A stretch of DNA of 64,000 nt from Desulfovibrio desulfuricans (GTDB taxonomy: Bacteria; Desulfobacterota; Desulfovibrionia; Desulfovibrionales; Desulfovibrionaceae). The position numbers and the translations under genes are program-made. Below are positions 22,273-55,000 of the stretch, one piece after another (the first letter of the stretch is position 1; each line of letters opens with the position of its first letter). A model generated the notes under the pieces. That model had not been told where the DNA came from and searched no databases. It was given only the letters and a program-made list of their open reading frames with translations. The stretch lies in NCBI RefSeq assembly GCF_024460775.1, contig NZ_JANFYZ010000002.1:30954-94953 (forward strand), written 5' to 3'.

Positions 22273-22273
22273 A

Positions 22274-24323: not shown

Positions 24324-24351
24324 GAGGGACTCCTTTTCTTGGTGAGGTAGA

Positions 24352-26608: not shown

Positions 26609-26703
26609 AATGAGGTACAGCGCATAACTACGGTAGATTTCTTCTTTTCATGCATAACCTTGCGGCGTAGCATGCTGGGCAATGTTCCTCGAAAGGATAT
26701 GCC

Positions 26704-29956: not shown

Positions 29957-29965
29957 GGAAAATCC

Positions 29966-31111: not shown

Positions 31112-31165
31112 GCCTACTGCGCCGCGTGAAAGAGTGTGTTCATCAGAACCGTATCCCTATGCAGC

Positions 31166-31333: not shown

Positions 31334-31345
31334 AGCGGGCCTCCC

Positions 31346-32656: not shown

Positions 32657-33144
32657 TGATCCAACCGGTAGGTTTGCTGTGTATATTGCGCGGAGCCGCG
32701 CCAGAACATATCAAGCGTATAGTCTATGCACTGCCTTTCAAACAGAATGCAGCGTTCTTTGTCGTCTTCCGTCTGGCCCATGCAGATATTGTAAAGAATG
32801 GGGCACATATCAACATTGAGCACAAATTCGCCAAGACTGGGGCGCGAATGGATTCCTTTGCGGGCGTGGCGCACGAGGCTCTTGACATATTTGTTATTGC
32901 AAATCTGGATGCGCTGCCCGTAATCGTGGTTTTCTTCGTAGCACTTCAGCCTGTTCTGAATGGTCTGCGTGTTTTCCGCAGCATTCACTTCAGAGGGCAT
33001 GGTGTCGCGCACATTGTTGTACAGTTGGCGCACAAGCTGGATATTGGTATTTCCCGTAAGATCCTTGCCTTCTACCTTGGGTGCGGCGCACAGGCACAGC
33101 AGGGCCGTCAGGGGGAGGGCAAGCCGCAGAAAATGATCGGTCAT
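32653..33144 (-). CDS. secreted Cys-rich small protein of unknown function
   Basis: Signal peptide LALPLTALLCLCAAPKVEG. Mature ~140 aa with 7 Cys and an N/Y/K/Q-rich composition atypical for this genome. Overlaps SPFH (ATGA) and the ABC exporter (4 nt): operonic. Confidence 0.55.
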   Translation of the reverse strand: MTDHFLRLALPLTALLCLCAAPKVEGKDLTGNTNIQLVRQLYNNVRDTMPSEVNAAENTQTIQNRLKCYEENHDYGQRIQICNNKYVKSLVRHARKGIHSRPSLGEFVLNVDMCPILYNICMGQTEDDKERCILFERQCIDYTLDMFWRGSAQYTQQTYRLDQ

Positions 33145-34823: not shown

Positions 34824-35106
34824 GTGGTTCTGTGGCCCCGGTGTTCAGGTGCGCCGCGCATTACAGCATGCCCGGCGGTCTTGTATGCGCCCCTTTGCAG
34901 TGCAGGGGGCCTGGTAAATCAAGCGTCAACGCTGCCGCAGCGGCAGCCACGGCCTTTGCCAAGGCCTGAAAGTTATGCTCTGTCAGCCAATTTGGGCATA
35001 AGCGCGGCTGGGTACGGCGAGCGTAATAGCCAACACTTCCGTAAGGGCCAGTTGCCCGGCCCATACGGAAGGCTCCGATTCCCGAAACCGCCAGAGGTCG
35101 CCGATA

Positions 35107-35730
35107 TTAGGCCGCGCTGGTGTCCGCTTCTTTGGCGGGGGCTTCAGCGGCGGCTTCGTCCTTGGTTTCTTTTTTCATCTTGTTCTTGATCTTGCCGACC
35201 AATGTTTTGCCTTCCTCAACCTTTTCCTTGAAGTAGGTCTTGGCTTCTTCGGCATTGAAATCAATCAGGTTGCCGCCCTTTCTGAAATGGCGGTCAAAAA
35301 CCCAGCCAAGGGCATAGGTACTGGCGCCGCCCATAATGCTGATGGTGGCCGCGCCCGCGGTGAAGCCAATGACCGGAATGCTTTTCAGCAGCGAGGCGGC
35401 CAGGGGCACGCTTGCCGTGGTCAGAAAACCGCCGCAGAGCGAAGAAACGATGGATTTGACGCGTTCTTTTTTGAATTCAACGCCGTGAGCCTCGGCCAGT
35501 GCGTGGATAAGCTCAATCTGGAGGGCGGAGAGACCCAGAAAATCTACAAGGGGCACCGGCACAAAGCCAATGCCGATAGCGCCGTATACGCGCTTGCGGA
35601 TGATGGCGTCCACCACTTCTTCCGAAGGGCAGGCGCGTTCGCACGTTTCTGCTTCAGCAGCGGTTTCGGCCTGGCAGGCCATCTGATCTTCAACGCCGTC
35701 GACCTTGTTTTCCAACGTATCTTTTGTCAT
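35107..35730 (-). CDS. DUF697-like membrane-associated protein (start at MTKDT; ORF opens at 35817)
   Basis: Core VPVPLVDFLGLSALQIELIHALAEAHGV...SIPVIGFTAGAATISIMGGASTYALG resembles DUF697 (YcjF-type) domains. Lys/Glu-rich tail. Confidence 0.5.
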   Translation of the reverse strand: MTKDTLENKVDGVEDQMACQAETAAEAETCERACPSEEVVDAIIRKRVYGAIGIGFVPVPLVDFLGLSALQIELIHALAEAHGVEFKKERVKSIVSSLCGGFLTTASVPLAASLLKSIPVIGFTAGAATISIMGGASTYALGWVFDRHFRKGGNLIDFNAEEAKTYFKEKVEEGKTLVGKIKNKMKKETKDEAAAEAPAKEADTSAA

Positions 35731-35770
35731 GTGCAACCTCGTTGTGGCCGGTTTCAGGGTTACGGGAATT

Positions 35771-36904
35771 CTATTGGGGAACGGCCGTTTTATCAACGCC
35801 CGCCAGTGTGACGTCAAAGAGTTCGTCTGCCGAAATGAGCAGAATCAGCGGCAAATCCATGCCCATCTTCTGGGCAGTCACCAGATTCAGTGCAATCTTG
35901 GGCGTGTAGGCCGCTGTTTCAAGCTGGGTATTTGGCGGCAACAGGCCAAGCTGGGTGGCAATATGGTCAGCATAAAATTTGCCAAGAGGAACATAATCAA
36001 GGGTCGAAAGCCCCATGAGCGCGCCTCTGCGCACATGAACGCTGCCGTCGCGCGCAAAGGTCTTGATGTGGTGGGCGTTGAGCGTGTCAAAGATGGCCTG
36101 GGGGTTGGCCTGCGTCCAGTCAAAGCAGTTGAGGGCCGAAATGTAAAAGGCATCCACGCCAGCGGTCAGCAGCCTGTCCACGCCCTTGGTGCACGATTCC
36201 ATGCTCTCCGCTTTGTCCAGAAAGGGGTATTCCACAAGGGTAAAGCCACGCTCGCGCGCAACTTCGCGCGCTTCCCGCACATTGGAGTATGAAAGGCCCT
36301 CGGGGCTGTCGTGATACATGATGCCAAGGCGAAGAAAGGGCAGCGCCTCATGAAACAGGGCAAAGACCTTGAACCATTTATCCTTGGTGTAGCGGATTGT
36401 CAGGTTGGCCGCGCCCTTGCCAGTGGCGCGATCCACAATGCCGGCGCCTGCCGGGTCGGCCACGTCAACGCTCATGATGGGCGTTTTGCCGTTGTTTTCA
36501 GCCAGCAGGGCCTTGGTGGCCTCTGTTCCCATGCTTATGATGACGTCGATATCCGGATTTTGCATCAGTTTGCGTGCCTCTGCGCGGTAAACGCTCTCAG
36601 AGGCATCCCAGCCGGGGCTGATGTACAGTTCGTCCGGCAGGGTGATGCGGTCGGCAACCCCGCGTTGCCGCAGGGCCTTGATGATTTCTTTTTGCAGCAG
36701 GGTAAATTCCCAGTACGGCCCGGCTTCAAAATAGGCCGCAACCTTGGGGCGCGAGGGTTTGGGCTGGGAGGACGCCGGGGCAGGCGCTGCCATCTGTTCC
36801 ACAGGCGCGCGCGGGGGGGCTGCCTGCACATTTGCGCACAGGCATACTGCGCAGCAAAGTGCTGCGGCAAGTGCGGGGAAGAACGATCCGAGGCTGCTGC
36901 TCAT
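35771..36904 (-). CDS. periplasmic ABC-type substrate-binding protein, PF04392 family (second copy; start at MSSSLG, ORF opens at 36994)
   Basis: Signal peptide FFPALAAALCCAVCLCANVQA. DIDVIISMGTEATKALLAENNGKTPIMSVDVADPAGAGIV is the same family as 29966-31111, but only recognisably paralogous (about 35-40% identity by eye). Confidence 0.7.
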   Translation of the reverse strand: MSSSLGSFFPALAAALCCAVCLCANVQAAPPRAPVEQMAAPAPASSQPKPSRPKVAAYFEAGPYWEFTLLQKEIIKALRQRGVADRITLPDELYISPGWDASESVYRAEARKLMQNPDIDVIISMGTEATKALLAENNGKTPIMSVDVADPAGAGIVDRATGKGAANLTIRYTKDKWFKVFALFHEALPFLRLGIMYHDSPEGLSYSNVREAREVARERGFTLVEYPFLDKAESMESCTKGVDRLLTAGVDAFYISALNCFDWTQANPQAIFDTLNAHHIKTFARDGSVHVRRGALMGLSTLDYVPLGKFYADHIATQLGLLPPNTQLETAAYTPKIALNLVTAQKMGMDLPLILLISADELFDVTLAGVDKTAVPQ

Positions 36905-37185
36905 GGAACAAAATACCCTATGATGCGTTCTTGGTGACACAGAGTGTCCGCCGCTCGGCGGTTCTACCCCAAAACTGGAGTGGAGTTCTTCCAAAATCCG
37001 TGCAGAGCAGACAAACGTTTTTTTATGGTAATCTGCGCTATTGGCGGCGTTGGGCCATCCGGATTTTCACACGGGCGCAAAACCATGCGCGCATGTTTCA
37101 ACATATCAGAGGAAAAGCGGTATCGTCCACATGAATTTGGGGCGCGCATCGGCATTTCTGCATGTTTTTTGGCGGGTTGCAGGGA

Positions 37186-37929
37186 TCAACAGGCAAGGTG
37201 GACCACGACGTCCAGGCAGGGGCTATGGGCCGCAACGCTGCACTGGTAACCATCTGTTGTTCTGATGTCGCGGCTTGTCCACTGCCCGCCACCCTCAAGC
37301 ATTGCAGCCATGCCGTGAACAGCATTTGCAGTGAAGGATGCTATCCAGCCGCTCTCTTGCGGCCCGGTGTGCACGCTGAAGCTTTGCAAGGGCATGCTCA
37401 GGCCCATGCCCACAGCCTTGATTACGGCCTCCTTGCGCGTCCAGCAGCGGTAAAAGGCCGCTTGCAGTTCCCCAGGGGGCAGGGACAGCAGGTCTTTTTG
37501 CTCCTGCGGATGCAGCTGGCTGGTCAGCTCCGCCGCATCGGGCAGAGGGCGCATCCTTTCCACATCAATGCCCACGCTTGCGCAGCGGCAAAGGGCCACC
37601 CACACCATGCTGCCCGAATGGCTGATGGAAAAATCAGCGGATATTCCGGGGCAAAAGGGCTTGCCGTAAGGGGAGCGGGCTAACTCTGCGGCACTGTTCT
37701 GCCCAAAGGCGGCGAGCAGCAAACGCCGCGCCAAAGCTCTGCCTGCCAGATGCCGCGCCGCATCTTCTATGCGTACGTAGCGCCCGGCCTCCTGCTGCTC
37801 CTGCGGGGAGGTGTGGGGCGCGCACTTGCTGGGCCAGTCCGCAATATTTTCAAGCTCCAGGCCAACGCACAAAATGGATTTTTCCGGGGCGGACGGCGCG
37901 CGCCAGTTGCAAAAACGTTGCGCCAGCAC
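37186..37929 (-). CDS. Sfp-type 4-phosphopantetheinyl transferase
   Basis: Motifs SPYGKP, FSISHSGSMVWVAL, GIDVERM (PPTase GxDxE) and WTRKEAVIKAVG (W/KEA.xK). Confidence 0.85.
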   Translation of the reverse strand: MLAQRFCNWRAPSAPEKSILCVGLELENIADWPSKCAPHTSPQEQQEAGRYVRIEDAARHLAGRALARRLLLAAFGQNSAAELARSPYGKPFCPGISADFSISHSGSMVWVALCRCASVGIDVERMRPLPDAAELTSQLHPQEQKDLLSLPPGELQAAFYRCWTRKEAVIKAVGMGLSMPLQSFSVHTGPQESGWIASFTANAVHGMAAMLEGGGQWTSRDIRTTDGYQCSVAAHSPCLDVVVHLAC

Positions 37930-37932
37930 CGC

Positions 37933-38649
37933 CTAATCCGTTGTTTGAAGGGTGCGGGTCATGTGGTCTGCCAGTTCCTGCCAGTGGTCCTGAACGTAAA
38001 AATGGCCGCCGCTGAAGGTGCGTACCGTGCATTGCGCGTCTGTCAGGTTTTGCCACTGCAGGGCGTCAGCCTCGGTAACGAGGTCGTGGCTGCCGATGGT
38101 GGTGTGGATAGGCAAGGGCAATGGGCTGTAGGGGGCGGGCTGCCAGCCCTCGATGGCCATAAAATCAGCGCAGAGCACAGGTTCAAGGTAGTTTCTGAAA
38201 TCCTGCGACTGCGCAATCTCGGGCGGGATGCCGCCCATGCGGGCCACGTAGTCCCACAGCGCGCCTGGGGGAAGCTGATCAACAGGGCGTGAAATCCCGG
38301 TGCGCATCAGCCCTGGCGTGGTGGCGGACGAAATGAACAGGGCCTTGGGCAAGGGCAGTGCCGCATCGCAGGCGAAGCGCGCGCAAAGAAAGGCCAGCAG
38401 GCCGCCCATGCTGTGGCCAAAAAGGGCGTAAGGGCCAGTGTGGGCGGCGGGGTGTATCTGCTCAAGCAGGTCGCGCCCCATGCTTTCCATGTTGGTAAGC
38501 AGCCGCTCCCGGCAGCGGCGGCCTTTGCCCGGCAGTTCCAGAGGTCTTGTAGTGATCCATGCCGGAAAAAGCTCGTTGAACCTCGCATAAAAGGCGGTAT
38601 TGCCTCCGGCGTGGGGAATGCAGAAAAGTGTTGTAGCCGAGTGTTGCAT
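37933..38649 (-). CDS. type II thioesterase (alpha/beta hydrolase, editing TE)
   Basis: LFCIPHAGGNTAFY, GHSMGGLLAFLCA (GxSxG) and C-terminal His. 238 aa, typical TEII size. Confidence 0.85.
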   Translation of the reverse strand: MQHSATTLFCIPHAGGNTAFYARFNELFPAWITTRPLELPGKGRRCRERLLTNMESMGRDLLEQIHPAAHTGPYALFGHSMGGLLAFLCARFACDAALPLPKALFISSATTPGLMRTGISRPVDQLPPGALWDYVARMGGIPPEIAQSQDFRNYLEPVLCADFMAIEGWQPAPYSPLPLPIHTTIGSHDLVTEADALQWQNLTDAQCTVRTFSGGHFYVQDHWQELADHMTRTLQTTD

Positions 38650-38658
38650 GTGTTGCGC

Positions 38659-39795
38659 CTACAGTTCAACCCATCCGGCATCGTCAGCAAGCTTTTGGAT
38701 GATGATGCGCGAGGCCTGTTCTTCGTGTCCGATGCGGGCATGCATCTGTTTGAGAACAATATTGCCCTCGCTGATGCCGCAGATTTCCAGTTTGCCGATG
38801 TCGTGCCCGATTATGTACTTGAAGCGTTTTCCATAGCCGCTGAGTTGCGCCTTGGCCTTATCCACAATGGCAATGCCCTGCTTGAGAGGCAGTTGAAAAT
38901 GGTGCCGTACCCGCGAAACAGGCATGCACTGGTACAGATAATACGGGTTCACCCCAATGGAAAGCAGGCGGTTCATAAGTTCGACAATGTCTTCCACACT
39001 GTCGTTGACGCCGCGCAGCAGCACCGCCTGATTGTTGATGGTGGCCCCGCACAGGCGCAGCCTCTTGATGGCCTCGGTCGAGGTGAGCGTGATCTCTCGC
39101 GCATGGTTGTAGTGCGTGGCAATGTACAGAGCCTTGCGCTCGGCAAAGGCGCGCAGGGCGTCCATGAGGGCGTCTTCAAAGATGCGCAGCGGGTAGGTGA
39201 CAGGAATGCGCGTACCGATACGCACAAAATCCACATGGTCGATCTCGGCCAGCCCCTCCAGCATTTTTTGCAGCACCGGGGTTGCCAGAGTCAGTGGATC
39301 GCCGCCGGAAAGAATGACGTTGTTGATCTTGGGATTGTCGGCAATGTATTGCAGCGCCCCGGCAAAGTTGCGCAAGGTCTGCTGGCTGGAGTGCCCCACA
39401 ATACGGCGGCGAAAGCAGTGGCGGCAGTGCATGGCGCAGCATTCTGTTGTGATCAGCAGTGCAGTGCAGTCGTATTTATGCAGTACGCCATTGCCCTTGT
39501 CGTGCTTGTCATCACCGTAGGGATCGGCAGTAGTCGCGCCCATGGATCCGGCAACCACCAGTTCTTCCGCATCAGGAAAGCACATGCGACGGATGGGATC
39601 ATTGGGATCGTTTTTATCTATAAGGCTCAGATAATAGCGGGGAATGTTGACCGGGTGCACCTTGGCGACTTCACGAAGCGTTGCTTCCTCTTGTGGACTG
39701 AAGGTGGCGTATTGCTTCAACTGGTCGATGGTGACGACGTTGTTTGCAAGTTCCTTTTTCCAGTCAAGGCATTTCCAGCAAGGTTCAGCGTCCAT
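38659..39795 (-). CDS. KamA-family radical-SAM amino acid 2,3-aminomutase (lysine 2,3-aminomutase-like; start at MDAEPCWK with GAGG RBS, ORF opens at 39891)
   Basis: CxxxCxxC cluster CAMHCRHCFRRR. Recalled similarity to lysine 2,3-aminomutase over ~350 aa: RYYLSLIDKNDPNDPIR, ALLITTECCAMHC, ILSGGDPLTL, VRIGTRIPV, LLRGVNDSVE, NPYYLYQC. Confidence 0.85.
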   Translation of the reverse strand: MDAEPCWKCLDWKKELANNVVTIDQLKQYATFSPQEEATLREVAKVHPVNIPRYYLSLIDKNDPNDPIRRMCFPDAEELVVAGSMGATTADPYGDDKHDKGNGVLHKYDCTALLITTECCAMHCRHCFRRRIVGHSSQQTLRNFAGALQYIADNPKINNVILSGGDPLTLATPVLQKMLEGLAEIDHVDFVRIGTRIPVTYPLRIFEDALMDALRAFAERKALYIATHYNHAREITLTSTEAIKRLRLCGATINNQAVLLRGVNDSVEDIVELMNRLLSIGVNPYYLYQCMPVSRVRHHFQLPLKQGIAIVDKAKAQLSGYGKRFKYIIGHDIGKLEICGISEGNIVLKQMHARIGHEEQASRIIIQKLADDAGWVEL

Positions 39796-40032
39796 TATTC
39801 CGGCCTCTGTTTGCGGATGGATTTTCTGTTGTTCAGGTGTGTTGGACGTTCCAGAACAACCGGATACAGAGTTATTGTTGAGGAAATGCATTCAATATCC
39901 GGTTTGCGTTCTGTTTGTGAATTTACGGCAAAAACTGCCCAAAGTATATGTAAAACTTGCTAATATACAGGCCGTGAGCTATTTTGCCCACCATATTGCA
40001 CTAAGCGCATTAAAGCCGCAGTGGGGGACGGA

Positions 40033-43000
40033 ATGGCAAAGATTGTGCCTTTAACCGGTTGTCAAAAAGAACTGTGGCTCTCGGCAAAAGCGGCGCTGTC
40101 CGACTATGCCGAAACCTCCATTCGGGGCTGTTATCACATTGACGCCCTGCTTGATCCCGATTTGTTGCGCCAGGCCATCAAGCGCACCCTGCATTTCACG
40201 CCTCTGCCCGCCGCCTCCCTGTGTCAGGATGAAGCCGAACCGTACTTTCTTGTGGGTGAACCGCAGGAACCTGATTTCAGGGTCCTGGACGCCGCTACGC
40301 AGCCGGACCCCGATGCCGCTGCCGACCGCATGATCGACGAGTTTTTTGAAGAACCGGTCGAAAATCCCCTTATGCGTTATGCCCTTGTCATCACTGGCGA
40401 GGCAAGCTGCATCGTTGCCATGAAGTGCTCGCACGTGGTGCTGGACGGGCTGGCATTCTTTTTTCACATAGCTGTTATTGCGGACGTTTACACAGCACTC
40501 GCACGTGGTGAAACGCCAGAACTTGGCGAGCCGTGCTCCTGCGAAGAAGCCTACCTTGAAGATCAGGCGCACTGCGCTTCGCCGCGGTTTCAGAAAGACA
40601 TGACCTTTTGGCAGGAGCACCTTGCCCGCCTGCCAGAAAAGCGCCTGCTGCGCGCCCTGCCGGGGCGGCCCGATGTGCTTGGCGAGAGCCGCCACCAGAA
40701 GTTTGTGCTGTCAGAAAAAACCTCGAGTGAAACGTCCGCGCTCATTGCCGCCCACAAGGTCAGCCCTGCGGTGTTTTTTACAGGCATCTACGCACTCATC
40801 GTGTCGTTCATGAGCGGAGAAAAGGACATTGTGGCTCTTGCCCCAGTGGCCTATGGGGAGCGCAAGGTGCTGTACCGGCGGCAGGGGGCCATGATGTCGC
40901 TGCCGCCACTGCTGGTAAACGTGGCCGCGCACGATACCTTTGCAGGGCTGCTGGAGGCCGTCAGCGCCCAGAACGGATCCTTTTACCGCCATGTGCGCAC
41001 GCCTTACCAACTGGCTGCCCGCCAGCTTGAAGGCAAAAATTTTGCCTTTCTGGCAGATACCTTTGTCAATTTTCTGCCCAATACACCTCCCGGCACGCCA
41101 GAATTCCCGATTGTCGAGGCGGAGCAGCGGCACAGCGCCAAGGAGCCGATCCTTTTCGGTACCCTGGTCATGCAGGAGCTGCGCTCGGGCTGCTTTTCGC
41201 TCACGGTGCGCAACAGCCGCAACCACCTGAGCGACAGGGATGTGGAGCGTTTTGTCGCCCGCGTTGAGAGCGTGGTGGCCCAGCTTGCCGCTGGCATTGA
41301 GCCGCCGCAGCTTGATTATCTGCTGGAAGAAGAAAAGCGGGAACTCGCGCAATGGCGCAGCGGCCCTGCCAGAAAGTATGATATCCGTTCCCTGCCCGAA
41401 CTTTTTGACGCGGCGGCGGATGCCTTTGCCGGGCGCGTTGCAGTCAGGGACGAATGGGGCAACTCCCTTTCGTACGCGCAGGTGCGCGAAAATTCCCTGC
41501 GTTGCGCCTCGTGGCTGGCAGGGCAGGGCGTTGCACGGGGCGGCATTGTGGCTGTGGCGGCGCAGCGCACGGCCAATCTGCCCGAAGTTGTTCTGGGCAT
41601 ACAGCGGCTTGGCGCGGTCTATCTGCCCATAGACCCCAAGGCCGCACCCGACCGCATGGCCTATATTGTGGAAGACGCCGGGGCAGACATCACGCTTGAC
41701 CTTGCCGATCTTGCCTACCGCCAAGCCCCCATAAGTCCCTTGCCGCAAGCACCCCGGGCAGAGGATGGGGCCTACCTGATCTACACCTCCGGCTCCACAG
41801 GCAAGCCCAAGGGCGTGCTGGCTCCGCACGGCGGCTTTGCCAACATGATCCAGGGGCAGATCGAGCTTTTTGGCGTGCAGGCCGATGACCATGTGCTGCA
41901 GTTTGCGCCGCCCATTTTTGACGCCTCGCTGTCGGAAATGTTCATGGCTCTGCTGGCAGGGGCCGCCCTGTATCCGGTGAGCGACCAGTGCCGCAACGCC
42001 CCCTGGACGTTGCGGCAGTACATGATCGATAACGACATCAGCATTGTCACCCTGCCGCCCTCGTACCTCAATCTTTTTGAGGGAGAGCCCTTTCCCGGAT
42101 TGCGCGTGCTCATAACGGCGGGCGAGCCGCCGGTGGTGGGCGATGCCCTGCACTATGCCAAGGGCCTGCGTTATTTCAACGCCTACGGCCCTACGGAAAC
42201 CTGCGTCTGCGCGGCAATGAAGGAAGTTTCGCCCTTTGAGCCGCAACCCATTGGCGTGGGCAGCCCCATCCCCAACGTGACGCTTTCCATCCGCAATGCC
42301 GAGGGGCGCGAGCTGCCCGCAGGCATGGCGGGCGAACTGTGGATAGGCGGGGCCAGCCTTGCCCTTGGCTACCACAACAAGCCTGAAATGACGGAGCAGC
42401 GTTTTGTCCATCTGCCGCAGGAAGGAAACGCCCGCTTTTACGCGTCCGGCGATCTGGCCTTGTGGTCGGACAAGGGTGAGATTCTGCTGCTGGGCCGCGC
42501 AGACGATCAGGTGAAGATTCGCGGCAACCGGGTGGAGCTGGCCGAGGTGGCCTGCCTGCTTGAGAGCTGCGAAAGCGTCAGTCAGGCGGCGGTGCTGGCC
42601 GTCAAGGATGCGGGCGGTCAGGCCAGCCTTGCGGCGTTTTTTGTGCTGCGGCCCGGCGCATCCATAGAAGCGGTGGTTTCGTGGAGCAGAACAAGCCTGC
42701 CGCCCTACATGGTGCCCTCAGCCTGGCATGTGCTGGAAGCTATGCCTCTTGCCCCCACAGGCAAGATAGACCGCAAGGCACTGCAAAGCCTTGCACGGCG
42801 GGGCGATGCTCAGGGCGGCAGTGTCCGCAAGCCCCATGCTGGCCTTCTGGAGATATTTGAGCGCGTGCTTGGCCGGGCCTATGATCCCGAAAAGAGCTTT
42901 TTTGCCCAGGGCGGCAACAGCCTTAACGCCATGTCGTTGCTGCACGCCATCCGAAAAACCTTTGACGTTGATATTTCCTTCCGCAGTTTTGTCAGCTGTG

Positions 43001-46000
43001 AAACGCTGTTTGATGTGGAATCCCTGCTTGGCGGCGTCCGTGCGGAGTCGGCCCTTGCAGGCATTGAAAGCGCGCCGCTCAGCACCGGGCAGTTCCGCAT
43101 CTGGGCCTACCAGCAGGTTAACGAAGGCTCCATTGACTACAATATGCCCCTGCTGCTTGAACTGCGGGGCGACAAAACTGCGGATTTTCTGGAAGGCCTG
43201 CGCAGGGCTGCCAACGCGCAGGAGCTTTTTCACTGCACGGTGGCGGGCGATATAGACAATCCCCATTTTGCGCGGGGCAAGGGCGAGGTCTACCTGTGCA
43301 GCGTGGCCATTGCCGATGCGCGCGAAGCGGCGGTATTTTTTGACCAGCAGATACACACGCCTTTTGACCTGCGTGTGGAGCCGCCTGTGCGCCTTGTGGC
43401 CGCTGTTTTGCCGCAGTGCGTTCAGGTGCTTGTGCTGGTGCACCATGTGGCGGGCGATGGCGAAACCCTTGAAATCCTGCTGCAAAATGCCTTGCGCTAT
43501 TTGCGCGGCGAGCCGCCCGCGTGCGGTCTGCTGGCTGTGCAGGAGGCTTTTTGCCGCAGGCAGGCCGCCTATGCGGCATCGCCAGCCTGCGCAGATGATG
43601 CGGCCTACTGGCAGGAGGTGCTTACGCCGCCCGTGCCCACTGTGAATCCGGCCACAGGGGCCGCCAGCCGCAAAGGCGCCATGATCGGCGTTGATCTTGA
43701 TGCGGAAACCGCGCAGGGATTTGAAATTCTGGCAAGAAATTCTGGCGCGAGCGTGCTGGCCTGCTTTGTGGCCTTGGCGGGGCGCGCACTCTGCCGCCGC
43801 TTTGACAGAAAAGAACTGTTGCTGGGCGTGCCTATGGGGCTGCGCGAAACGCAGGACGAATTTTGCGCTGCCGGATTCTACGTCAACACCGTCCCCCTGC
43901 GTGTGCGCCTTGACGGCCTTGAAGACAGCGCCGCAGTGGCCGATGCCGCCCGGCAGATGCGGCAGGCCATTGAACACAGCCGTTACTGCGCTGCGGATAT
44001 TGTACCCGAATTTCTGGCAACGCATGCGCATTTTGAACCTGTGGGAGTTCCGGGGCTTGAACTGAACAGGCTGGAGCTGGAATTGCGGGCCAGCAAGCTC
44101 ACAGCCAGCTTTACCCTCGTAACAGGCACGGCTTCGCGCATTGTGCTGGAGTACGACGCGGGTTGCATAGCCGATGCCCCGGCTTTGCTGGATGATCTGG
44201 CGCAGAGCATGCGACGTGCCTGCGAAGGCCTTGCCCGCCGCAATCCCCGGCAGGTACTGGCCGATGCCTGGCGCGAGATTCTGCACCCCGGCAGTTCCAG
44301 CGCAGTGCAGGAAGAAAGCGACTTTTTCCGCGATGGCGGTGATTCCATCAAGGCTATCCAGATAACGGGCATTCTGCGCCGCAGCGGCATAACCGCCTTG
44401 AGCGCGCCGGATTTTTTGCGCAAGCCCCACTTTGGCGACCTCTGCACCCTGCTGGAAAGCGCCGACAGCGAGCTTTCTGCCGCGCAGGCGATGGACTACA
44501 CGCCTGTTGCCCCTGGCGAGCAGGTTCCCTTGCTGCCATTTGCCCGCTATTTTCTGGGTGCGCATCCCAGTCACTGGCGGCAGTTCTTCATGCTGCTGCC
44601 GCTGGAAATTCGCTCGGATGTGCCAACGGCAAGCATTGAAGCATGGCTGCAAACCCTGCCGGAAAATCACGAATCCCTGCGCATGGCCTTTGCGCCGGAT
44701 CATGCCGTGCTGCTGGCCGAACCGCAAAAAATAACCCTGCACTGCCGCGATTTCGCCGACACTGTGGAGCAGACAAGCCTGCTGCGCAAGGCGGTGGCGG
44801 AGATCACAGAGGGCCTTGATGCGGCATGCGGCAAAACTCTGGGGGCCATGCTGGCCCGGCAGGGCGAGAGGCGCTTCTTGCTGCTGGTGGGGCATCACCT
44901 TGCGCTGGACGCGCTTTCGCTTGAAACCCTGCGGCAGGGCTTGCTCCATTACTGCCGCACAGGCAAAGCCCAGTGCGAAGCGCACGGCCTTGCCCTGCGC
45001 GCCCGCGAGGTTGAGCGGCTGCGCGCCGCCGGGGTATTCCCGTCTGAGGAACAGCGCGCCTTGTGGCGGGCTGCCTGCGCCGAACCATGCGAACCCTTGC
45101 GGGCTCTTTTGCCCCAGAGCAGGGACAGGGGCCGGGACAGCGCCGCCAGCCGTGCCCGTCTGTCCGCGCAGCTTGAGGGCTTCCGGCAGGAATACAGCAC
45201 CGATGCCAAGGCCGATCTGCTGGCCGCGCTTGCCTGCGCCCTGCACGCCCAGGGGCAGAAGGCGGCGGTGCGCGTAACACTTGAAAGCCACGGGCGCGAT
45301 GAACTTTTGTCGGGCTTTGACGCCAGCCGCAGCCTTGGCTGGTTTACGGCGGTCTGCCCCATGCCGCTTGGGCCTTCCCTGAACTACGCGCAGGCCCGCG
45401 AAGCCCTCGGCCCGTGGCTTGCGCAGCATTTCAGCCCGGAAAACTGCAATGCCTATGGGTATCTGCGGCAGGAAAATCCGGCTGAATTTGGCTATGCGGC
45501 CCAGATTGCCTTTAACTATCTGGGGCGTTTGACGGGTCAGCCTGACGAAGAGGCCTCCCTGATGCTCTCGGCTCTGGCTCCGGGGCTTATCCCCGAGCTT
45601 GTCCACGCCGACATGGAGGCGGATGCTCCGCTGGAGCTTTCGGTTTTTTTTGACCAGCAGGGCATCCTGCATCTCGGGGCGTGGTTCAGCCCGCAGTGCC
45701 TGCCGCAGGATTGGGTTTCCGGCTTGCTCCAGAGTTGGCGTGCCGCCCTGAAAACCCTGCCCGCCTATCTGCCGCAGCAGACCCTGGATGCCATTTTTGC
45801 CGCCTGCGGCTGCCATGCGGAGGATGTGGAGCGCATCGCACAGCCGGATGCAGGGCATGCGCCCTTGCTGTATCAGTCCCTGCTTGCGCAATCTGGGGTT
45901 TACACCCAGCAGGTGGAATTTCATTTTCGCGGCCCGGTGGATGTTTTTGCGCTCATGCGCGCGTGGGAAGCGCTCACCGCGCGGCACGAAAGCCTGCGTT

Positions 46001-49000
46001 CGCTCTTTCCCATGCCGGTGGAGGGCGAGTTTTACCGCGTGGTGTTGCTCAAGGGCCGCACCAGCCTTGAGTTCCACGACTTTTCCCATTTGCCGGAGGC
46101 CGAGGCCGAGGCGGAAGCACAGGCCCTGCTGCGCGCGGAGCGGCAGCGCGGCTTTGACGTGCAGCGCGGCCCTCTGCTGCGGGCGCGCTTTTTCCGCCGG
46201 GGTGCCGACCGCGTGGTCATGAGCTGGTGCTTCCACCACCTGCTTATGGACGGCTGGTGCATGGGCGTGCTGCTGCGGGAGCTTTTTGCCCTGGCCGGGG
46301 CCAAGGGTGGGCCGGAAAACAGCCGTTTGCCGGAGCCTTTCCCGCTGGAGACCTATTCCCGCTGGCGCGCGCAATTTGATGAGCGTGCGGCGCGGGCCTA
46401 CTGGGCTGGATTGTTGCAGGATTTCAGCGGGCCAACCGGGGTTGAGCTGGCCCAACCGGCTCCCCGCGCTGCCGCCCCCGGGGAATTTGACGAACCGCTG
46501 ACAGTGGAACTGGAGCTGGACGCCGCCCTGAGCGCCAGCCTGCAAGAACTGGCAAAAACAGAGGCGGTGACGCTCTCCGCCCTTGTTCAGATGCTGTGGG
46601 CCATTGTGCTCGGCAATGCCAACAATGGCTGCCGCGATGTGGTCTTTGGCGTGGTTACTTCGGGCCGTCCGGCGGAGCTGGCGGGCATTGAGTCCGCCGT
46701 GGGGCTGTTCATCCAGACCTTGCCCCTGCGGGCGCGCTGGACAGCCAGCGACTCCCTCGGCGCGCTGCTGGCCCAGGTGAAAGAGCAGAATCTGCAACAG
46801 ATGCGCTATGGCTATGTGCCCCTGTCGACACTGGGCAGAAACCTGCTCGACCACCTGATGGTCTTTGAAAATTATCCTGTGGACACGAGTTTTGATCACA
46901 ATCGTGTTGAACTGCGCGACATGCGCGGTTTTGAAAAGCTGCCTTACGCCCTGGGCATTTCGGTTATTCCTGGCGTGAATCTGCGTTTCCGCTTTTTATA
47001 TGATCCCGAGCGCTTGCCCGAAGAGAGGGCGCTTGCCCTGCGCAATGGGCTGCATGCCGTGCTTGCGGCAGCAGCCTCAGGGCGCGCGCGTACCTGCCTT
47101 GCGCTGGAAGAAGCGGCGAACAACGCTGGGGCAGGCGCAGAAAGGCCCGCAGGAGAACATGGCGGCGCAGAACTGGGCGGGGCAGAAAATGCGCCCGGTG
47201 ACGCTGCCGCCGCAACCGGGCAAGCCCAGGTCCCGCAGGGGCCGGATGTGGCGGCTCTGGCGGAAACCGTGCGCGCTGCCTATGCCGCCGTGCTTGGTTG
47301 CCCTGTGGATTCTGTGGATGCGGATTTTTTCCAGCTTGGAGGGCACAGCCTGATAGCCATGAGTCTGCTCTCGCAGTTGAGCAAAAGCCTCTCCGTGGCA
47401 GTGGGCATAGAGGATGTGATGGGCTACCCCAGCCCGCGCGCCCTTGCCGCCCGCATTGGCAGTCTGGCAAAGCCGGATGCTGTTATTCCGCGAGTGGAAG
47501 AGCTTGCAGCCTACCCCCTGTCGCCAGCCCAGCAGCGCATCTGGTTTCTGCAAAAGCTGCATGAGGGCGGTCAGGTTTATGTGATTCCCTTTGCGGCCCG
47601 GTTGCGCGGCCCCGTGGATGCAGTGGCCCTGCAAAAGGCCCTGACATTGCTTGAGGAAAGGCACGATGCCCTGCGCCTGCGCGTGGCGCTGGATGCACCG
47701 GAGCAAAGCCTTGCCCCTGCTGGCGGTCTGCGGCTTGAAAGCTACGATACGCCCCTGACTGATGCAGCCTACCTAGGCATGAGCCTGCCTCTGGGGCCGG
47801 AAAGGCCCTTGGTGCGCGTGGCCCTGTTCCGGCAGGAGGACGGCAGCCATGCGCTGGTGTTCTGCTTCCATCACATCATATTTGACGGCTGGTCGGCGGA
47901 AGTTATCACCCGCGAACTCAACGAAGCCTACGGCGCGGTGTTGCAAGGCCGTGTGCCGCAGTGGCGGCCTCTGGATCTGGATTTTGCAAGCTACGCCCTG
48001 TGGGAATCGCAGCGGGAGGCGGAAGGGCTTGAGCAGATATGCAGCGACCTCGCGCCCCTGCCGGAGCGTTTGCGCCTGCCGCTGGATTACCCCCGCCCGG
48101 CGGTACAGCGTTTTGAAGGGGCCGTGCAGAGTTTTGATCTGGGGCTTGAGCGCAGCCACGCCCTCAAGGACTGGGCCCAGCGGGCCGGGGTAACGGTATT
48201 TCCCGTGCTGCTTGCGCTGGTGGATGCCTTTTTGCTCCGCCATACCGGGCAGGACGACATTATTGTGGGTTGCCCTGCGGCAAACAGGGAGCATGAGCAG
48301 GTTCAGGGCGTTGTGGGCCTCTTTGTCAACACCCTCGCAGTGCGGGCGCGCATGAACGCGCAGGGCGGCTTTGCCGAGTTGGCAGGCACGGTGGATGCCG
48401 CATTCAGAAAATCTTTGGCCGTGCAAAGCTGCCCCTTTGAAAAAGTTATCGAAGCCGTGGGGGTGGAGAGAAATGCCGCGCGCAATCCCGTATTTGACGT
48501 GTTTGCCGCGCTGGAAGACGCAAGCTGGAACAATTTTGGCCGTGCGCCCCTGTGCATGGAGCCTCTGCCCCTGCCGCACCAGAGCAGCAAGTTTGACCTG
48601 AGTTTTTACTTCAAGGAGCGGGCGGACGGCGGCTATACGGTGGATGTGGAATACTGCACCGAGCTGTTCAGCCCGCAGACAGTCCGCCGCATGGCGGAGC
48701 GCCTGCTGACCCTTGCGGACGCCGTGCTGGCTGATGATGCAAAACCCTTGGCCGAACTGGATATTCTGCCAGCGCGGGAGCGCGCAGAACTTGCCAGCTT
48801 TAATGATACGGCGGAACCGCTGGATGTCGCCGCCGACATGGACAGCCGTTTTCGCGCTCAGGCTGCCCGCACTCCCCATGCTCCGGCAGTGCTGGACGCC
48901 GCAGGCACGGCTGTTTCCTATACGCAGTTCAACGCGCAGGTGGATGCCGTGTGCGCATGGCTGCAAGGGCAGGGCGTGGAGCGCGGGCAGTATGTGTGCA

Positions 49001-52000
49001 TGTGTTTTGAACGCTCGCCCGCTATGCTGGCCTGCATTTTTGCAGTTTTGCGGCTTGGGGCAGTCTATGTGCCGCTTGCCGCCACTTTGCCCGCCGAGCG
49101 CATGCGGTCTGTGTTTGAAGACCTCGGGCAGTGCGTGGTGCTGTGCGAAGCGCGCTTTGCGGAGGCCTTCCGCAAAAATTTGCAGGACGGGCAGAATGGG
49201 CAGTACGGCCAGCGCGTGCTCTCGCCTGATTTTGAGGCGCTGGTCGCTGGCGCGCAGGTGCCGGGCGCTGTTCCTCATTATGAAGCGGACCCCTTGCCGC
49301 CGGATTCCCCGGCCTACGTGATCTTTACTTCCGGTTCCACCGGGCGGCCCAAGGGCGTGCCTATCGGACACGCCAGCGTTGCCAACCGTCTGTTGTGGAT
49401 GCAGTCGCGCTTTCCCATCGGGCAGGGCGACGTGGTGCTGCAAAAAACCACCATCACCTTTGACGTGTCGGTATGGGAGCTGTTCTGGTGGTCGTGGCAG
49501 GGCGCTGGCATTGCCCTGCTGGAACCGAATGCGGAGAAAAATCCTGCCCTTATTGTGCAGGCCATAGAGAGCCGCCGGGTCACGGTGCTGCATTTTGTGC
49601 CGTCCATGCTGCGGGCCTTTCTGGATCATCTTGAGGCGCATCCCGGCGATGTGCGCAGACTGCGGTCATTACGCTATGTGTTCACCAGCGGCGAGGCCTT
49701 GCCCCGCGAGCTTGTGGCGCGGTGGAACGCCCTGACGCATGCGGATCAGTTGCAGGTGGAACTGCACAATCTCTACGGCCCCACCGAGGCTACCGTGGAC
49801 GTCTCTTGGCAGCCCTGCCTGAACACGCCGCCCCATGCGGTACCCATTGGCCGCCCGGTCAGCAATACCCGGCTATACGTGCTGGATGCCTGCAAGAACC
49901 CTGTGCCGCTGGGCGTAACGGGTGAGATTTATATCTCGGGCATACAGGTTGCCAGAGGTTATCTGAATAGGCCCGACCTCACGGCCCAGCGTTTTATGGA
50001 TGATCCTTTTGCCCACGGCAGCCGTATGTACCGCACGGGCGATCTGGGGCGATGGCTGACTGATGGCAGCATTGAATACCTCGGGCGCAACGATGATCAG
50101 GTGAAAATTCGCGGCTACCGCATTGAGCTTGGCGAGGTCGAGGCGGCGCTTGGGCGCTGCCGGGGCGTCTCGCAGGCGGTGGTGAGGATGGGGCGCATTG
50201 GCGAATACGCGGCGCTTGAGGCCTTTTTGCTGCCGCAGGGCGGCGCGCGGCTTGATCTGGCAGGCATCCGCGCGGAGCTTGCGGCCCTGCTGCCCAACTA
50301 CATGTGTCCGTCCCGCTTTTTTGTGGTGCAAGACATCCCGCTGAGTCCCTCGGGCAAGGCAGACCGCAAGCGCTTGCAGGGCCAGCCCCTGCTGGCGGGT
50401 GGAGAAAGGAGCGCCGTCCCTGAGCATGCCCCGGATGCATTGCAGTCTGGCCCTCAGTCTGGTCTGGAATCCGGCCTCTCCCCCACATTGATCGAAGCCG
50501 TGCGCGAAGTGTGGCGGCAGGTTATGCCAGAAGTGGAAGCGGGTTCTGATTTGGGATTTTTTGACGCGGGGGGCAATTCGCTCCTGCTGGTGCGGCTGCA
50601 CACCCTGCTGGACAAGCAGTGGCCGGGAGTATTCACGCTGGCCGGGCTTTTTTCAGAAAGCACCATCCGCGCGCAGGCCACCTTTATTGCGCGTGTGCAG
50701 CAGGTTGGCAGCACGGTTGCAACCCGCCATGCAACCACAGCGCCCATAGCCATTATCGGTATGGCCGTGCGCCTTGGCGATTATGCCGATGTGCAGAGCT
50801 TCTGGCGCGATCTTGCCAGAGGCGCGGACAAGAATATTCCCATGCCCGAAAAAAGGCGCGGCGAAACGCGGCAGATATTTGATGCCGTGGGCCTTGCCTT
50901 TGACAAGGCCCGCCTGCGCGAGGCCGCCTATCTTTCGGACATTTCCTCCTTTGATTACCGGCGGTTCGGTCTTTCGCCCAACGATGCCAGCCTGCTTGAC
51001 CCGGCCCAGCGCGTGTTTCTTGAAACAGCCCTGCGTGCCCTGGACGATGCGGGCTACGGCGGCAGCGCCCTGGAAAACGCCGATGTGGGCGTTTTTGTGG
51101 GCGCAAGCCCGGTGCGCCTGTTCCAGACTGCCGTGACGCGGGCCTTTCCCGATCTGGCGGAGCAGACCTACCTGCTCAATGTGCCTTCCAACGTGCTGGC
51201 CCGTCTGAGCTACATGAAAAACTGGCACGGCCCTGCGGCCAGCGTCGATACGGCCTGTTCGTCTGTGCTGGCGGCCCTGCATCAGGCCTGCCGCAGCCTG
51301 CACGAGGGCGAGTGCGCCGTGGCCCTTGTGGGCGGCGCGCATGTTATTGATCTGCCTGTAAAGGCCGATGCGGCCTTTGCCATCGAGTCTGTCTCTGGCC
51401 GTACAAGAACCTTTGACGCCGAGGCCGAAGGCGTTGGCGCGGGCGAAGGGGCGGCGGTATTTCTGCTCAAGCCGCTGGATGCCGCACTGCGCGATCATGA
51501 TGCCATACATGCGGTGATCCCCGGCAGCGCCGTCAATCAGGACGGCAAGTCCTCCAGCATGGCCGCGCCCAATCCCGAGGCGCAGGCCGAGGTCATTGAC
51601 CGCGCTGCACGGAACGCGGGCGTCTCACTGGCGGACATCCAGTTTTTTGAGGCCCACGGCACGGCTACTGTTCTGGGCGACCCGGTGGAAATCGAGGGCC
51701 TGCGCAGGGCCTTTGCGCGGCAGGGCGCGCGGCGGGAGCACAAGGCACTTATCGGTTCGGTCAAGGGTAATCTGGGGCATCTGGATGCCGCCGCTGGCGC
51801 TGCCGGCCTTGCCAAGGCCGTGCTCTGCCTTGAAAACGGCCTTGTGCCGCCGCAGCCGCATTTTGAGCGGCCCAATCCCCATATCGATTTTGAGGCCGCG
51901 CCCGTGCGCGTGGCGCAGATGCTTGAGCCGTTGCCTCCGCAGGAGCGCCCCTGGCGTTGCGGCGTCAGTTCCTTTGGCCTCAGCGGCGTAAATACCCATG

Positions 52001-55000
52001 TGATTGTGGCGGAGCATCAGGCGCAGCCTTTGCCGCAGGACGACGGGCACTGGCAGTGCGTTGTGTTTTCCGCCCCGGACGAAACCTCGTTGCAGGACTA
52101 CGCCAAGGCGGTCGCGGCGGCTGTGGCGCGCAACGAGGGCTGGCCCCTGCATGCCATTGCCGCCACCCTCATGACCGGGCGGGATGCCCTGCCTGTGCGT
52201 GCGGCTCTTGTGGCGCGTTCCCGGCAGGAGCTACTTGAGCAGCTTGAGGCCGGACTCACGGGCGTTGCCGCGGGCAATGCGGCACGCCATGACAGCCGGA
52301 GCAGTATGGAAAATCCGCTCCCCGGCGCATTCTTTGCCTCGCAGGAAGCGGCGCAGGCAGCCGCCAGCGCCTACCTTGCCGGGGCAAGGATTGCGTGGCC
52401 CGCAGAAAAGCCCGTCTACAGGGTGCATCTGCCCGCAGCCCCCCTCGCCGCCGCTACGTTGTGGCCGCGTTTTGCAGCGCACTTTCTTTCCGAACCCGTC
52501 ATAACGCCTGCCGGAAAGGCCTTTGCCCTTGCCGTGGACAGGCCGGATTTCTGGCCTGCGGCGGAGCACAGGCTTGAGGGCACCCCCTTGCTGGTGGGCA
52601 TGAGCCTGCTGGATTGTCTTGGATGGATCGGCGGAGCCGCCCCCCTGAGCCTGCACGACCTGCGCTGGCGCAAGCCAGTAACCTGCGGCCCAGGACGCCG
52701 CGTGGTGCTGCTGGCGCAGGAGCAGGGCGATGCCCTTGCCGTGGAACTGCACCATTTTGAGCCTGCCGACCACAAGGCTGGCGAGACTTCTACTAAGTGG
52801 CAGGCCACTGGCACGTGGAGCGTGGCCGCCAGCGGCCTTGTGCGCGGCGGGACTGCCCGCCCTGCGGCGTTGAATCTGGCTACAGTGCGCGAAAGTCTGC
52901 GCGAAATTGCGCAGCAAGATACGCCGGAAGATTCGCCGCTCATGGTCAGCGGGCGCTGGCAGTGCCGCAAGGCGCTCTGGGTGGCGGAGGACGGCAATAC
53001 CCTGCTGGCAGAGCTGTGCCTGCCCGAGGCCTATCGTGCGGATTTCAATACCTTCCGCTGGCATCCGGCCATGATGGATATTGCCGCAAGCCTTGCCCTG
53101 CGCGACGCTTACGGGTTTGTGCCCGCTGGTTGCCGCATGGCGCGGCTCCACAGCCCCCTGACCGCGCAGGCCTTTGCGCTGGTGCGTATCACTGACCGTC
53201 AGCAGGGCATGATTGTGGCCGACTGCGCGGTGACGGACGCCTCGGGCCAGATTGTTGCGGAGCTTGAAGGAATGACCTTTATGGCCCTTCGCAAGGGACA
53301 GGCCGTTGGCAAATCCGGCCCGGATACGCCGCAGATTCATTCTTTGCATAGTGACCAGCCTCAGTCGGAACTGTACGCCATTGGGTGGAAGCAGGCCGAT
53401 CTGGAAGGCTCTGTTGCCGGGCCGCAAAACATCATCTTGCTTGGCGGGCAGGGGAGCCTTTTGGGTGAAACCCTGGAGCCGCTTGCGCACGCGCACCGTC
53501 CCTTGCCCTTGCTGGCGGATGAAGCCCGCGCTCTGGCGCGTGAAATCCTTGCTGGCCCCACAGATCATCTGCTCTGGCTGCCTGCATCACAGTCTGCTGG
53601 ACAGCATGGCGGGCAAAACGACACGTGGCCGCTCTGCGCCCTGCTGCAAGAGATTTGCAGCGGTGGTCTGCGCCGCCCCCTGCGCGTCACCGTTGTGGGC
53701 AGGGGGGCCTTTGTGGCAGGCGGTTCTACCCCTGAACCGCATCAGGAATGTTTGCCGCAGGGTGCGTTGTACATGGGGCCGCTTCTCTGCCTGCCGTGGG
53801 AAGAACCCAGAATTTCCTGCGCCTATGTGGAGCTTGAGGAGCAGAACGCAGCTTCCGTAGCGGCCTTTGCGGCCAGCCTCGGGCTGGTTGACGGGCCGTA
53901 TGTGGCGGCACACGATGGCACGGTGCGTGTGCGTGAGCTGGTCAAGCTGCCATCTGCGCCTGCGCTAACCACTATGCCCGTTATAACAAAGAACGGTTGC
54001 GTGGTGATCACCGGCGGCCTCGGAGGCATGGGCCAGACGCTGGCGCGCCAGATTTATGAGCGCCACGGCGCGCACGTGGTTTTGCTGCACAGAAGCAGCC
54101 AGTTGCCGCCCCATGCGCTGGAGGGCGTGCCCTTTGTCGCCTTCCGCTGCGATGTCGCGGACGCCGCGCAGGTTGAAGAGGTTTTTGCAAAAATCCGGCG
54201 CGAGGTCGGCCCGGTGCAGGGCGTCATTCATACGGCTGGCGTGGCTGGCAGGGGCTATCTGCTGACCAGCGACAGGCAGGGATATGAATCCGTACTGGCC
54301 CCCAAGGTGGCTGGCACCTGGAATCTGCACAAGGCAACCCTTGGCGATGATCTGGCCTTCTTTGTGCTGGCTTCATCGCGCACGGCCCTTGTGGGTGCGC
54401 CGGGGCAGAGCGACTACACCGCCGCCAATGCCTTTTTGAACGCTTTTGCCCGGTATCGCCGCCGCCTTGGGCTGCCCGCGCTTTCCATTAACTGGAACAC
54501 ATGGTCGGGCGTGGGCATGGCCGTTCGCGAGGGGCTTGGCAACGGGCCGGAGGCCGCAAACATGCTTGCGCCGCAGCAGGCCCTTGCCGTGCTTGAAGCC
54601 GCACTTGCCAGCGGTGAGGAACTTGTGGCTGTGGGCATGACGGGCGAAAGCGTAGAGGATTTTGCCCTTAACGGCCTGCCCGGGAGCGAGTTGCCCGGCA
54701 GCATGTTGGGCAGCGCGTCAATCAGCAGCAGTGCGGCGAAGGGCAATGCCACGCAGGCGCAACCCGGCGTTAATGCCGACAGTCTTGATGGGGCGGCCCT
54801 GCTTGAGATTATCCGCGATTGCCTTGGATATGACAGACCGCTGACCAGAGAGGACGACTTTTTTGATCTGGGCGGTGATTCCATTGCCGCAACGCGCATT
54901 GTGAACAGGCTGGACAAGGAGGCGGGGCTTGCCCTCGCTGTGGCGGATCTGCTGGAAAGCGACACCCTCGGCGATATTGTTGACTGCGCCCTTGCCTCGT

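Follow-up and report, generated by a model that had tools for sequence, protein, structure and literature searches.

The window analysed here is a 64-kb stretch (64,000 nucleotides) of contig NZ_JANFYZ010000002.1 from Desulfovibrio desulfuricans, which carries a hybrid assembly line of the nonribosomal peptide synthetase (NRPS) as well as the polyketide synthase (PKS) type. The megasynthase at its core is encoded by a single open reading frame (ORF) of 5610 aa on the forward strand (40021-56853), and the interval under study lies inside it. Pfam scans of the whole megasynthase protein and of ten slices of it give the order Cstarter-A1-T1-C2-T2-E-C4-T3-C5-A2-T4-KS-DH-KR-T5-C6, in which C denotes condensation, A adenylation, T carrier, E epimerisation, KS ketosynthase, DH dehydratase and KR ketoreductase domains. 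A second forward-strand ORF of 1183 aa (56850-60401), whose ATG overlaps the megasynthase stop (ATGA), encodes A3(MT)-T6-TE, where MT is a methyltransferase and TE a thioesterase. Two complete elongation modules of the megasynthase, C2-T2-E and C4-T3, have no adenylation domain.

AMP-binding regions are found by Pfam at only two places in the 5610-aa ORF (aa 462-915 and 2944-3446), neither of which falls between T1 and C5. Regular expressions for the A3, A5, A7, A8 and A10 motifs give no match over aa 1005-2490, and phmmer searches with the three A domains of the window detect no similarity in the T1-C5 interval at E 1e-3. Inter-domain spacers in the interval are ~10-60 aa long, which leaves no room for an A domain of ~500 aa. 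Pfam, regular expressions and phmmer thus bear out the C-T-E-C-T order without A domains that had been claimed in an earlier note on this DNA, and the cryptic A motifs that could have overturned it were looked for with the latter two methods and are absent. The motif strings on which that claim was based are all in frame in the ORF: DFFRDGGDSIKAIQ of T2 (aa 1434-1447, nt 44320-44361), PLLPFARYFLG and HHLALDALS of the E domain (nt 44527-44559 and 44893-44919), HHLLMDGWC of C4 (nt 46234-46260) and FFQLGGHSLIAMS of T3 (nt 47326-47364). Six-frame translation of the window yields no other A-, C- or T-like ORF, so that the only A domain outside the megasynthase is indeed the methyltransferase-interrupted one; its description as free-standing does not hold, because the A(MT)-T-TE protein begins with it.

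Domain typing, for which C subtypes were assigned from the best solved-structure matches and from NCBIfam alignment, indicates a coherent series within the interval. All 10 solved-structure matches of the domain after T2 are E domains (from BacC, which is bacitracin synthase 3, PvdL, TycB, TycA and GrsA), and the domain carries the motifs PLLPF, HHLALDALS, LESHGRD, GWFT, NAYGYL and FNYLGR, including the core HHxxxD histidine and the EGHGRE-type glutamate. It aligns to the E region of NCBIfam PRK05691, and its match to TIGR01720, at 30.7 bits, stays below the cutoff of 74.2. The E-type character proposed for this domain is therefore upheld by its full motif set and by every structural match; the opposite proposition, that it is an ordinary LCL condensation domain and that the T domains lack their serine, fails on both counts, since both carriers retain the phosphopantetheine-attachment serine. 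C4 reaches 180-223 bits with C domains that either come after an E domain or take a D-configured donor (BacC 498-883, PvdL 572-970, McyB, SrfA-C and TycB1) and at most 107 bits against other C types; it also aligns to the C domain following E in PRK05691, and is typed from these sequence matches as DCL. The E domain thus stands between a GGDSI-type carrier and a DCL-type C domain. We take GGDSI of T2 to be a signature of E-feeding carriers and GGHSL of T3 to be one of C-feeding carriers. A D-configured residue, as the earlier note had deduced from the E domain, is implied by the E typing and reinforced by the DCL type of C4 and the GGDSI signature of T2.

The solved-structure matches of C2 include LCL domains, such as TycC6 (2jgp), and C2 is best typed as a divergent LCL-like domain. 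Truncation of C2 was considered, as the Pfam match covers only profile positions 4-337, and was rejected by eye: the remaining 75 aa align across relatives with the usual C-terminal pattern of C domains. At the head of the protein, C1 matches best 7c1k/7c1h/7c1p and CDA-PSI C1 (4jn3), which we presume to be starter C domains. The resulting sequence of subtypes runs from an LCL-like C2 through an E-feeding T2, the E domain, a DCL-type C4 and an ordinary carrier T3 to an LCL-like C5. From this typing of C2, T2, E, C4 and T3, the two modules resemble ordinary ones that lack nothing but an A domain. Coordinates are collected in Table 1.

Table 1. Features of the assembly line and adjoining genes (positions are nucleotides of the window; aa numbers refer to the encoded protein).
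Feature	Position	Strand	Basis
Sfp-type phosphopantetheinyl transferase	37186-37929	-	Pfam
Type II thioesterase	37933-38649	-	Pfam
KamA-family radical-SAM 2,3-aminomutase	38659-39891	-	TIGR00238, 260 bits vs cutoff 199
C1, starter (lipo-initiation) condensation	40036-41346	+	Pfam Condensation, aa 6-442
A1, adenylation, proposed loader of T1 and T2	41386-42795	+	Pfam AMP-binding, aa 462-915
T1 carrier (GGNSL)	42844-43011	+	Pfam PP-binding, aa 942-997
C2, A-less module 2 (HHVAGDG, nt 43441-43461)	43069-44235	+	Pfam Condensation, 93 bits, aa 1017-~1405 (Pfam 1017-1330+)
T2, A-less module 2 (GGDSIKAIQ)	44254-44454	+	Pfam PP-binding, aa 1412-1478
E, epimerisation domain	44518-45855	+	aa ~1500-1945 (Pfam Condensation 1524-1783+)
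C4, DCL-type condensation (HHLLMDGWC)	45874-47100	+	Pfam Condensation, aa 1952-2353
C4-T3 linker, Ala/Gly/Glu-rich, poorly conserved	47101-47262	+	Sequence inspection
T3, A-less module 3 (LGGHSL)	47263-47457	+	Pfam PP-binding, 59 bits, aa 2415-2479
C5-A2-T4, serine module	47509-50688	+	Pfam; C5 aa 2497-2924, A2 aa 2944-3446, T4 aa 3492-3556
KS-(no AT)-DH-KR-T5, trans-acyltransferase (trans-AT) PKS module	50740-54987	+	Pfam ketoacyl-synt, RhiE-like linker, PS-DH, KR, PP-binding; T5 aa 4926-4989
C6 and ~186-aa tail	55051-56850	+	Pfam; C6 aa 5011-5414
A3(MT)-T6-TE termination protein	56850-60401	+	Pfam; alignment

Relatives of the megasynthase were sought by scanning one genome per species. The large protein database yielded no homologue above ~2,600 aa, and full-length architectures were taken from genome loci. 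The A-less order is kept, as far as the contigs reach, in 11 related loci (L001-L012, with L010 and L012 both from a single metagenome-assembled genome, MAG, as separate contigs) that span three genera and 46-94% identity: Desulfovibrio genomes and MAGs at 76-94%, Magnetospirillum fulvum at 53%, a Pseudodesulfovibrio MAG at 48% and an unclassified MAG at 46%. With Desulfovibrio genomes the nearest, an origin of the window in Thalassospira or Tistrella, which had been considered, was dropped. In an alignment of 10 sequences (the window and nine relatives), the motifs HHxxGD of C2, GGDSIKAI of T2, HHLxLD..S, LESHGRD and GWFT of the E domain, HHLLMDGW of C4 and LGGHSL of T3 are invariant, and T3 is conserved across all long forms. 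Ratios of nonsynonymous to synonymous substitution rates (dN/dS) for C2, T2, E, C4 and T3 are 0.08-0.24 against the relatives L001 and L004 (0.10-0.13 for C2 and 0.11-0.16 for T2) and are similar to those of the A-containing modules. The C4-T3 linker, at 31-65% amino-acid identity, has a dN/dS of 0.55-0.65 in the same comparisons; with the distant L009 and L011, for which dS approaches saturation, the ratio is 0.30-0.45. As judged from this pattern, the A-less modules are very likely functional.

Invariant catalytic motifs and low dN/dS make relic, skipped-module and artefact readings very unlikely. Module skipping is known in related systems, including thalassospiramide, and the chain could in principle pass from T1 straight to C5, with the A-less modules left as relics or passive way-stations. 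It is hard to reconcile this with catalytic residues of C2, T2, E, C4 and T3 that are invariant down to 46% identity, with dN/dS values as low as in A-containing modules, or with a coherent E-then-DCL subtype logic; moreover, C2, T2, E and C4 also form part of an entire stand-alone synthetase (described below), and we regard skipping as highly improbable. Loss of sequence during assembly, or a degenerate A domain that escaped notice between T1 and C5, can be set aside almost completely, given that the same architecture recurs in more than 10 independent assemblies and that the spacers are short and devoid of A-like similarity.

A shorter version of the front half exists on its own. Three metagenomic (marine) proteins (P0001, P0002 and P0003) share 44-46% identity with the megasynthase, have the order C-A-T-C-T-E-C and end right after C4, just before the C4-T3 linker. 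On two independent contigs, L019 and L020, the short form is the sole NRPS gene, with no other AMP-binding gene within ~10 kb upstream or <3 kb downstream. Its neighbours on both contigs include a phosphopantetheinyl transferase (PPTase), a DUF697 protein, an ABC transporter and a Band 7 protein, as in the window; L019 additionally carries a type II thioesterase, an ABC substrate-binding protein and a transporter of the major facilitator superfamily (MFS). Long and short forms without exception share the A1 specificity code DASTIAAVCK. Since the short form has a single A domain, two T domains and no other AMP-binding gene nearby, one A domain appears to serve two carriers in it.

Homology of the back half lies elsewhere. 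Among 72,556 plasmids, the sole full-length match of the second ORF (>80% coverage) is TtmB of the thalassospiramide pathway, at the start of plasmid pTM1 of Tistrella mobilis KA081020-065, and the 15.6-kb gene that adjoins it fits the description of ttmA (bioRxiv 10.1101/560987). Residues 2432-4435 of the megasynthase (T3 and C5-A2-T4-KS, into DH) align with TtmA aa 1519-3473 in one high-scoring segment pair with 41.5% identity over 2051 aa. The homology begins inside T3, just past the C4-T3 linker, so that T3 is homologous to T2 of TtmA, and KS-DH-KR-T5 has the same layout as module 4 of TtmA, with which it is collinear. In front of this homology, the cassette C1-A1-T1-C2-T2-E-C4 is thus probably an evolutionary unit, with the C4-T3 linker as its fusion junction, as suggested by these alignments and by the point at which the short forms stop. 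Such a fusion at the C4/T3 linker would explain why T3 came to lie there without its original A domain.

Upstream of the megasynthase, and transcribed divergently from it, lies the KamA-family radical S-adenosylmethionine (radical-SAM) aminomutase gene, which occurs upstream of the synthetase in all long-form loci that reach far enough (L001-L004, L007-L009 and L011), including that of the alphaproteobacterial Magnetospirillum, where the enzyme is 67% identical. It is absent from the short-form loci L019 and L020. Its alignment to 2A5H (E 3.5e-70) places a methionine at Asp293 (D293) of lysine 2,3-aminomutase, from which the predicted pocket differs from that of lysine 2,3-aminomutase; as to its substrate, no NCBIfam equivalog reached its cutoff. 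The type II thioesterase and PPTase genes are kept in relatives better than the overlapping forward-strand ORFs, and the long forward-strand ORFs that overlap 37162-39963 are less conserved and probably not genes. These two genes belong to a conserved reverse-strand accessory operon (27554-38649) that also includes two ABC_sub_bind proteins, a DUF697 protein, an ABC ATPase/permease, a small ORF, a protein of the SPFH/Band 7 type and a long MFS protein; on the marine metagenome contigs L019 and L020, the short form has most of these genes beside it. Beyond the MFS gene, 25865-27573 (forward strand) encodes a VanX-like D-Ala-D-Ala dipeptidase (Peptidase_M15) and a protein with a formyltransferase domain, and 18793-25470 contains long forward-strand ORFs (1178, 482 and 304 aa) that have no Pfam match and are overlapped by reverse-strand ORFs of similar length.

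How T2 and T3 are charged is the central question raised by this architecture. The specificity codes extracted are DASTIAAVCK for A1, DVWHFSLVDK for A2 and DAQDLAVVDK for A3. We take the A1 code, which is within one residue of a published tyrosine code, to be tyrosine-like and that of A3 to be glutamine-like. The A2 code is identical to that of TtmA A3 (serine), and Ttc A3, the counterpart of TtmA A3 in the related Ttc thalassospiramide line, was experimentally shown to load serine (bioRxiv 10.1101/560987). We consider it reasonably probable, from sequence and by analogy with known systems, that T2 and T3 receive their amino acids from A domains that belong to neighbouring modules within the line, with A1 serving both T1 and T2. 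A1 would charge its own T1 and the T2 of the next module, C2 would condense acyl-L-Tyr with Tyr-S-T2, and the E domain would convert the T2-bound residue to the D form, to give L-Tyr followed by D-Tyr. C4 would then hand the chain to an amino acid on T3, for which the serine-specific A2 downstream is the most likely loader, given that mutagenesis of its Ttc counterpart A3 pointed to serine supply to a carrier upstream; A1 is an alternative. From there the chain would grow in thalassospiramide-like fashion, with serine, a malonyl extension processed by KR and DH, a methylated glutamine-like residue and release by the TE domain. The predicted product of the long form is acyl-L-Tyr-D-Tyr-X, then a serine-derived enoyl unit and a (Me)Gln-like residue; for the short form it is acyl-L-Tyr-D-Tyr, which a free nucleophile would take off the enzyme. 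Historically, a self-contained C-A-T-C-T-E-C cassette would have joined the T-C-A(Ser)-T-KS... portion of a thalassospiramide-type line by fusion in the linker between C4 and T3.

Several points weigh against this account of loading by neighbours. The closest paralogue of T3 in the window is T6, at 36% identity, and not T1 or T4. Conservation of the KamA-like aminomutase implies that the pathway uses a beta-amino acid, which could enter at T3. The search for A domains covered the 64-kb window, and a stand-alone A or A-T protein may lie elsewhere in the genome. Finally, the tyrosine assignment of A1 and the glutamine-like assignment of A3 come from comparison with known codes and not from a predictor.

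The earlier note expected loading in trans or by an unusual route; a separate enzyme is not the best reading in view of the short form, with one A domain for two carriers, and of the collinearity with TtmA. It is nevertheless conceivable, although unlikely, that T2, T3 or both are charged by a dedicated A (or A-T) protein that stands alone and whose gene lies beyond the 64-kb window, in the manner of Cal22 and Cal23 of WS9326A: trans-acting A domains that serve A-less modules are documented (PMC7539972), the search ended at the window borders, and proteins from other genomes that consist of C-T repeats only (P0076, P0097 and P0107) must be trans-loaded. Against it, the window contains no further A-like ORF, none flanks the short forms over the distances given above, and the accessory genes conserved with the cluster (PPTase, type II thioesterase, transporters and aminomutase) include no A domain. 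Less probable again is that A3 of the A3(MT)-T6-TE protein charges T3 in trans, perhaps with a beta-amino acid from the KamA-like aminomutase, while A1 still serves T2. T6 is the cognate carrier of A3, and its score of 110 with T3 compares with 51-80 for other carriers; it is also the best match at the T3 position in L009, A3 resides on its own polypeptide, and the aminomutase is found only where T3 and the back half occur. The similarity of T3 and T6 is weak, however, and may mean no more than that the two share the ordinary GGHS type of carrier, while the A3 code keeps D235 and looks like that of a glutamine-like alpha-amino acid, and T3 is homologous to the carrier of a normal C-A-T module in TtmA. 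Similarity of T domains was tried as a guide to the T3 loader, and although T6 comes out closest, the signal is too weak to decide. A bolder combination, which we likewise think improbable, would make the C-A-T-C-T-E-C cassette a mobile "one A, two carriers, L-then-D" unit that was grafted onto a warhead-forming back end of thalassospiramide type in Desulfovibrio, Pseudodesulfovibrio and Magnetospirillum, and would have the orphan T3 charged across polypeptides, by A3(MT)-T6-TE or another trans loader, with a KamA-type beta-amino acid. If true, this would constitute a new way to feed a beta-amino acid into an A-less module, and a protease-inhibitor-like lipopeptide would be predicted from sulfate reducers.

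The two modules also matter beyond this locus. Two consecutive A-less modules, one of them with an E domain, that have been kept over deep divergence represent a natural experiment for NRPS engineering, and the likely fusion point visible at the C4/T3 linker bears on how loose A-T pairing may become in recombined modules. As an uncharacterised hybrid lipopeptide pathway of Desulfovibrio, the cluster has a possibly bioactive product: the thalassospiramides inhibit calpain, and the section of their assembly line in which the unsaturated warhead is made is homologous to the back half of the cluster. A literature search for a paper on the cluster, its product or any Desulfovibrio NRPS-PKS product found nothing relevant.

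Comparison with known systems places the two modules in a wider context. In HMWP2 of yersiniabactin synthesis, with its aryl (ArCP) and peptidyl (PCP) carrier proteins and cyclisation (Cy) domains in the order ArCP-Cy-A-PCP-Cy-PCP, one A domain serves its own carrier and also the carrier of the A-less module that comes next in the polypeptide. Unlike the Desulfovibrio line, HMWP2 has cyclisation domains, uses cysteine, lacks an E domain and makes a siderophore rather than a lipopeptide, and its PCP (5u3h) is a weak match of T2. In mannopeptimycin the same residue is incorporated twice, in the L and then in the D form. The mannopeptimycin, viomycin/capreomycin and bleomycin systems, whose products and organisms are unrelated to those of the Desulfovibrio line, contain A-less modules (VioI/CmnI for viomycin/capreomycin) that presumably draw on an A domain located in some other module (refs 6-9 of bioRxiv 10.1101/560987), and HMWP2 is cited as a precedent in ref. 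10 of the same work. C2 and C4 both show a weak structural-sequence match to CmnI (9uay). The WS9326A NRPS likewise has A-less modules inside a multimodular protein, but its loaders are discrete trans-acting A proteins, Cal22 and Cal23, encoded in the cluster (PMC7539972), whereas the window holds only three integrated A domains and neither it nor the surroundings of the short forms, over ~10 kb upstream and <3 kb downstream, contain a stand-alone A gene. Further consecutive A-less modules occur in proteins of Streptomyces and Micromonospora (P0076, P0097, P0107 and P0114), which have the order C-T-C-T-C(-T) entirely without A domains.

The thalassospiramide lines Ttm and Ttc are the closest comparison. 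In the model of the authors, A2 of Ttm loads the A-less carriers T1 and T5, A1 and A5 are listed as missing, and inactivation experiments in Ttc indicate that the serine-specific A3 loads the upstream T1a (bioRxiv 10.1101/560987). Our mapping of TtmA agrees in finding A-less C1-T1 and C5-T5, with a small A remnant before T5; no such remnant was detected in the interval of the window by regular expressions or phmmer. Like Ttm and Ttc, the Desulfovibrio line has a starter C domain, A-less C-T modules and a collinear C-A(Ser)-T-KS-DH-KR-T block without an acyltransferase, and its last C domain stands at the end of the large protein and is followed by a separate A(MT)-T-TE protein. The methyltransferase of the second ORF is inserted ahead of the TSGSTG motif, between a2 and a3, which is a rare position that is also listed for TtcC and TtmB (PMC11355689, table 2). 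One Desulfovibrio relative (the MAG L004) has a tandem T5-T5 after KR (aa 4897-5071), like the tandem T4a/T4b of thalassospiramide TtcB. A tail of ~186 aa after C6 (56293-56850, forward strand) matches the Condensation profile only weakly and in part (27 bits, positions 230-277); it is kept in Desulfovibrio relatives, has no counterpart in TtmA and may represent either the remnant of a C domain or a region for docking.

The differences are substantial. The front half C1-A1-T1-C2-T2-E-C4 is only paralogous and non-collinear to TtmA, at 28-32% identity, and Ttm has no E domain in our mapping. The valine module 5 that stands between the PKS and terminal modules of Ttm is absent from the Desulfovibrio line, where no module lies between T5-C6 and the second ORF. 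The code of the terminal A domain is DAQDLAVVDK in the Desulfovibrio line and DAIDVGAVGK in TtmB, and the KamA-type aminomutase that the former conserves is not seen within ~7 kb upstream of ttmA or ~4 kb downstream of ttmB. The host, unlike those of Ttm and Ttc, is an anaerobic sulfate reducer. Because the front half is replaced by C-A-T-C-T-E-C and the full module set, with its C-A-T module 2 and C-(A)-T module 5, is not present, the Desulfovibrio system is, on sequence grounds, a partial relative of the thalassospiramide family and not a member. The arrangement had been described as uncommon, which requires correction: A-less modules are an established class, with precedents in yersiniabactin, viomycin/capreomycin, mannopeptimycin, bleomycin and thalassospiramide (bioRxiv 10.1101/560987), and other C-T-C-T proteins occur among the database matches. 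Modules that are served by the A domain of another module belong to a known class, of which this system is probably an uncharacterised example rather than a new mechanism; since A-domain borrowing is already established elsewhere, it would extend a known principle to a lipopeptide-type assembly line of Desulfovibrio and its relatives.

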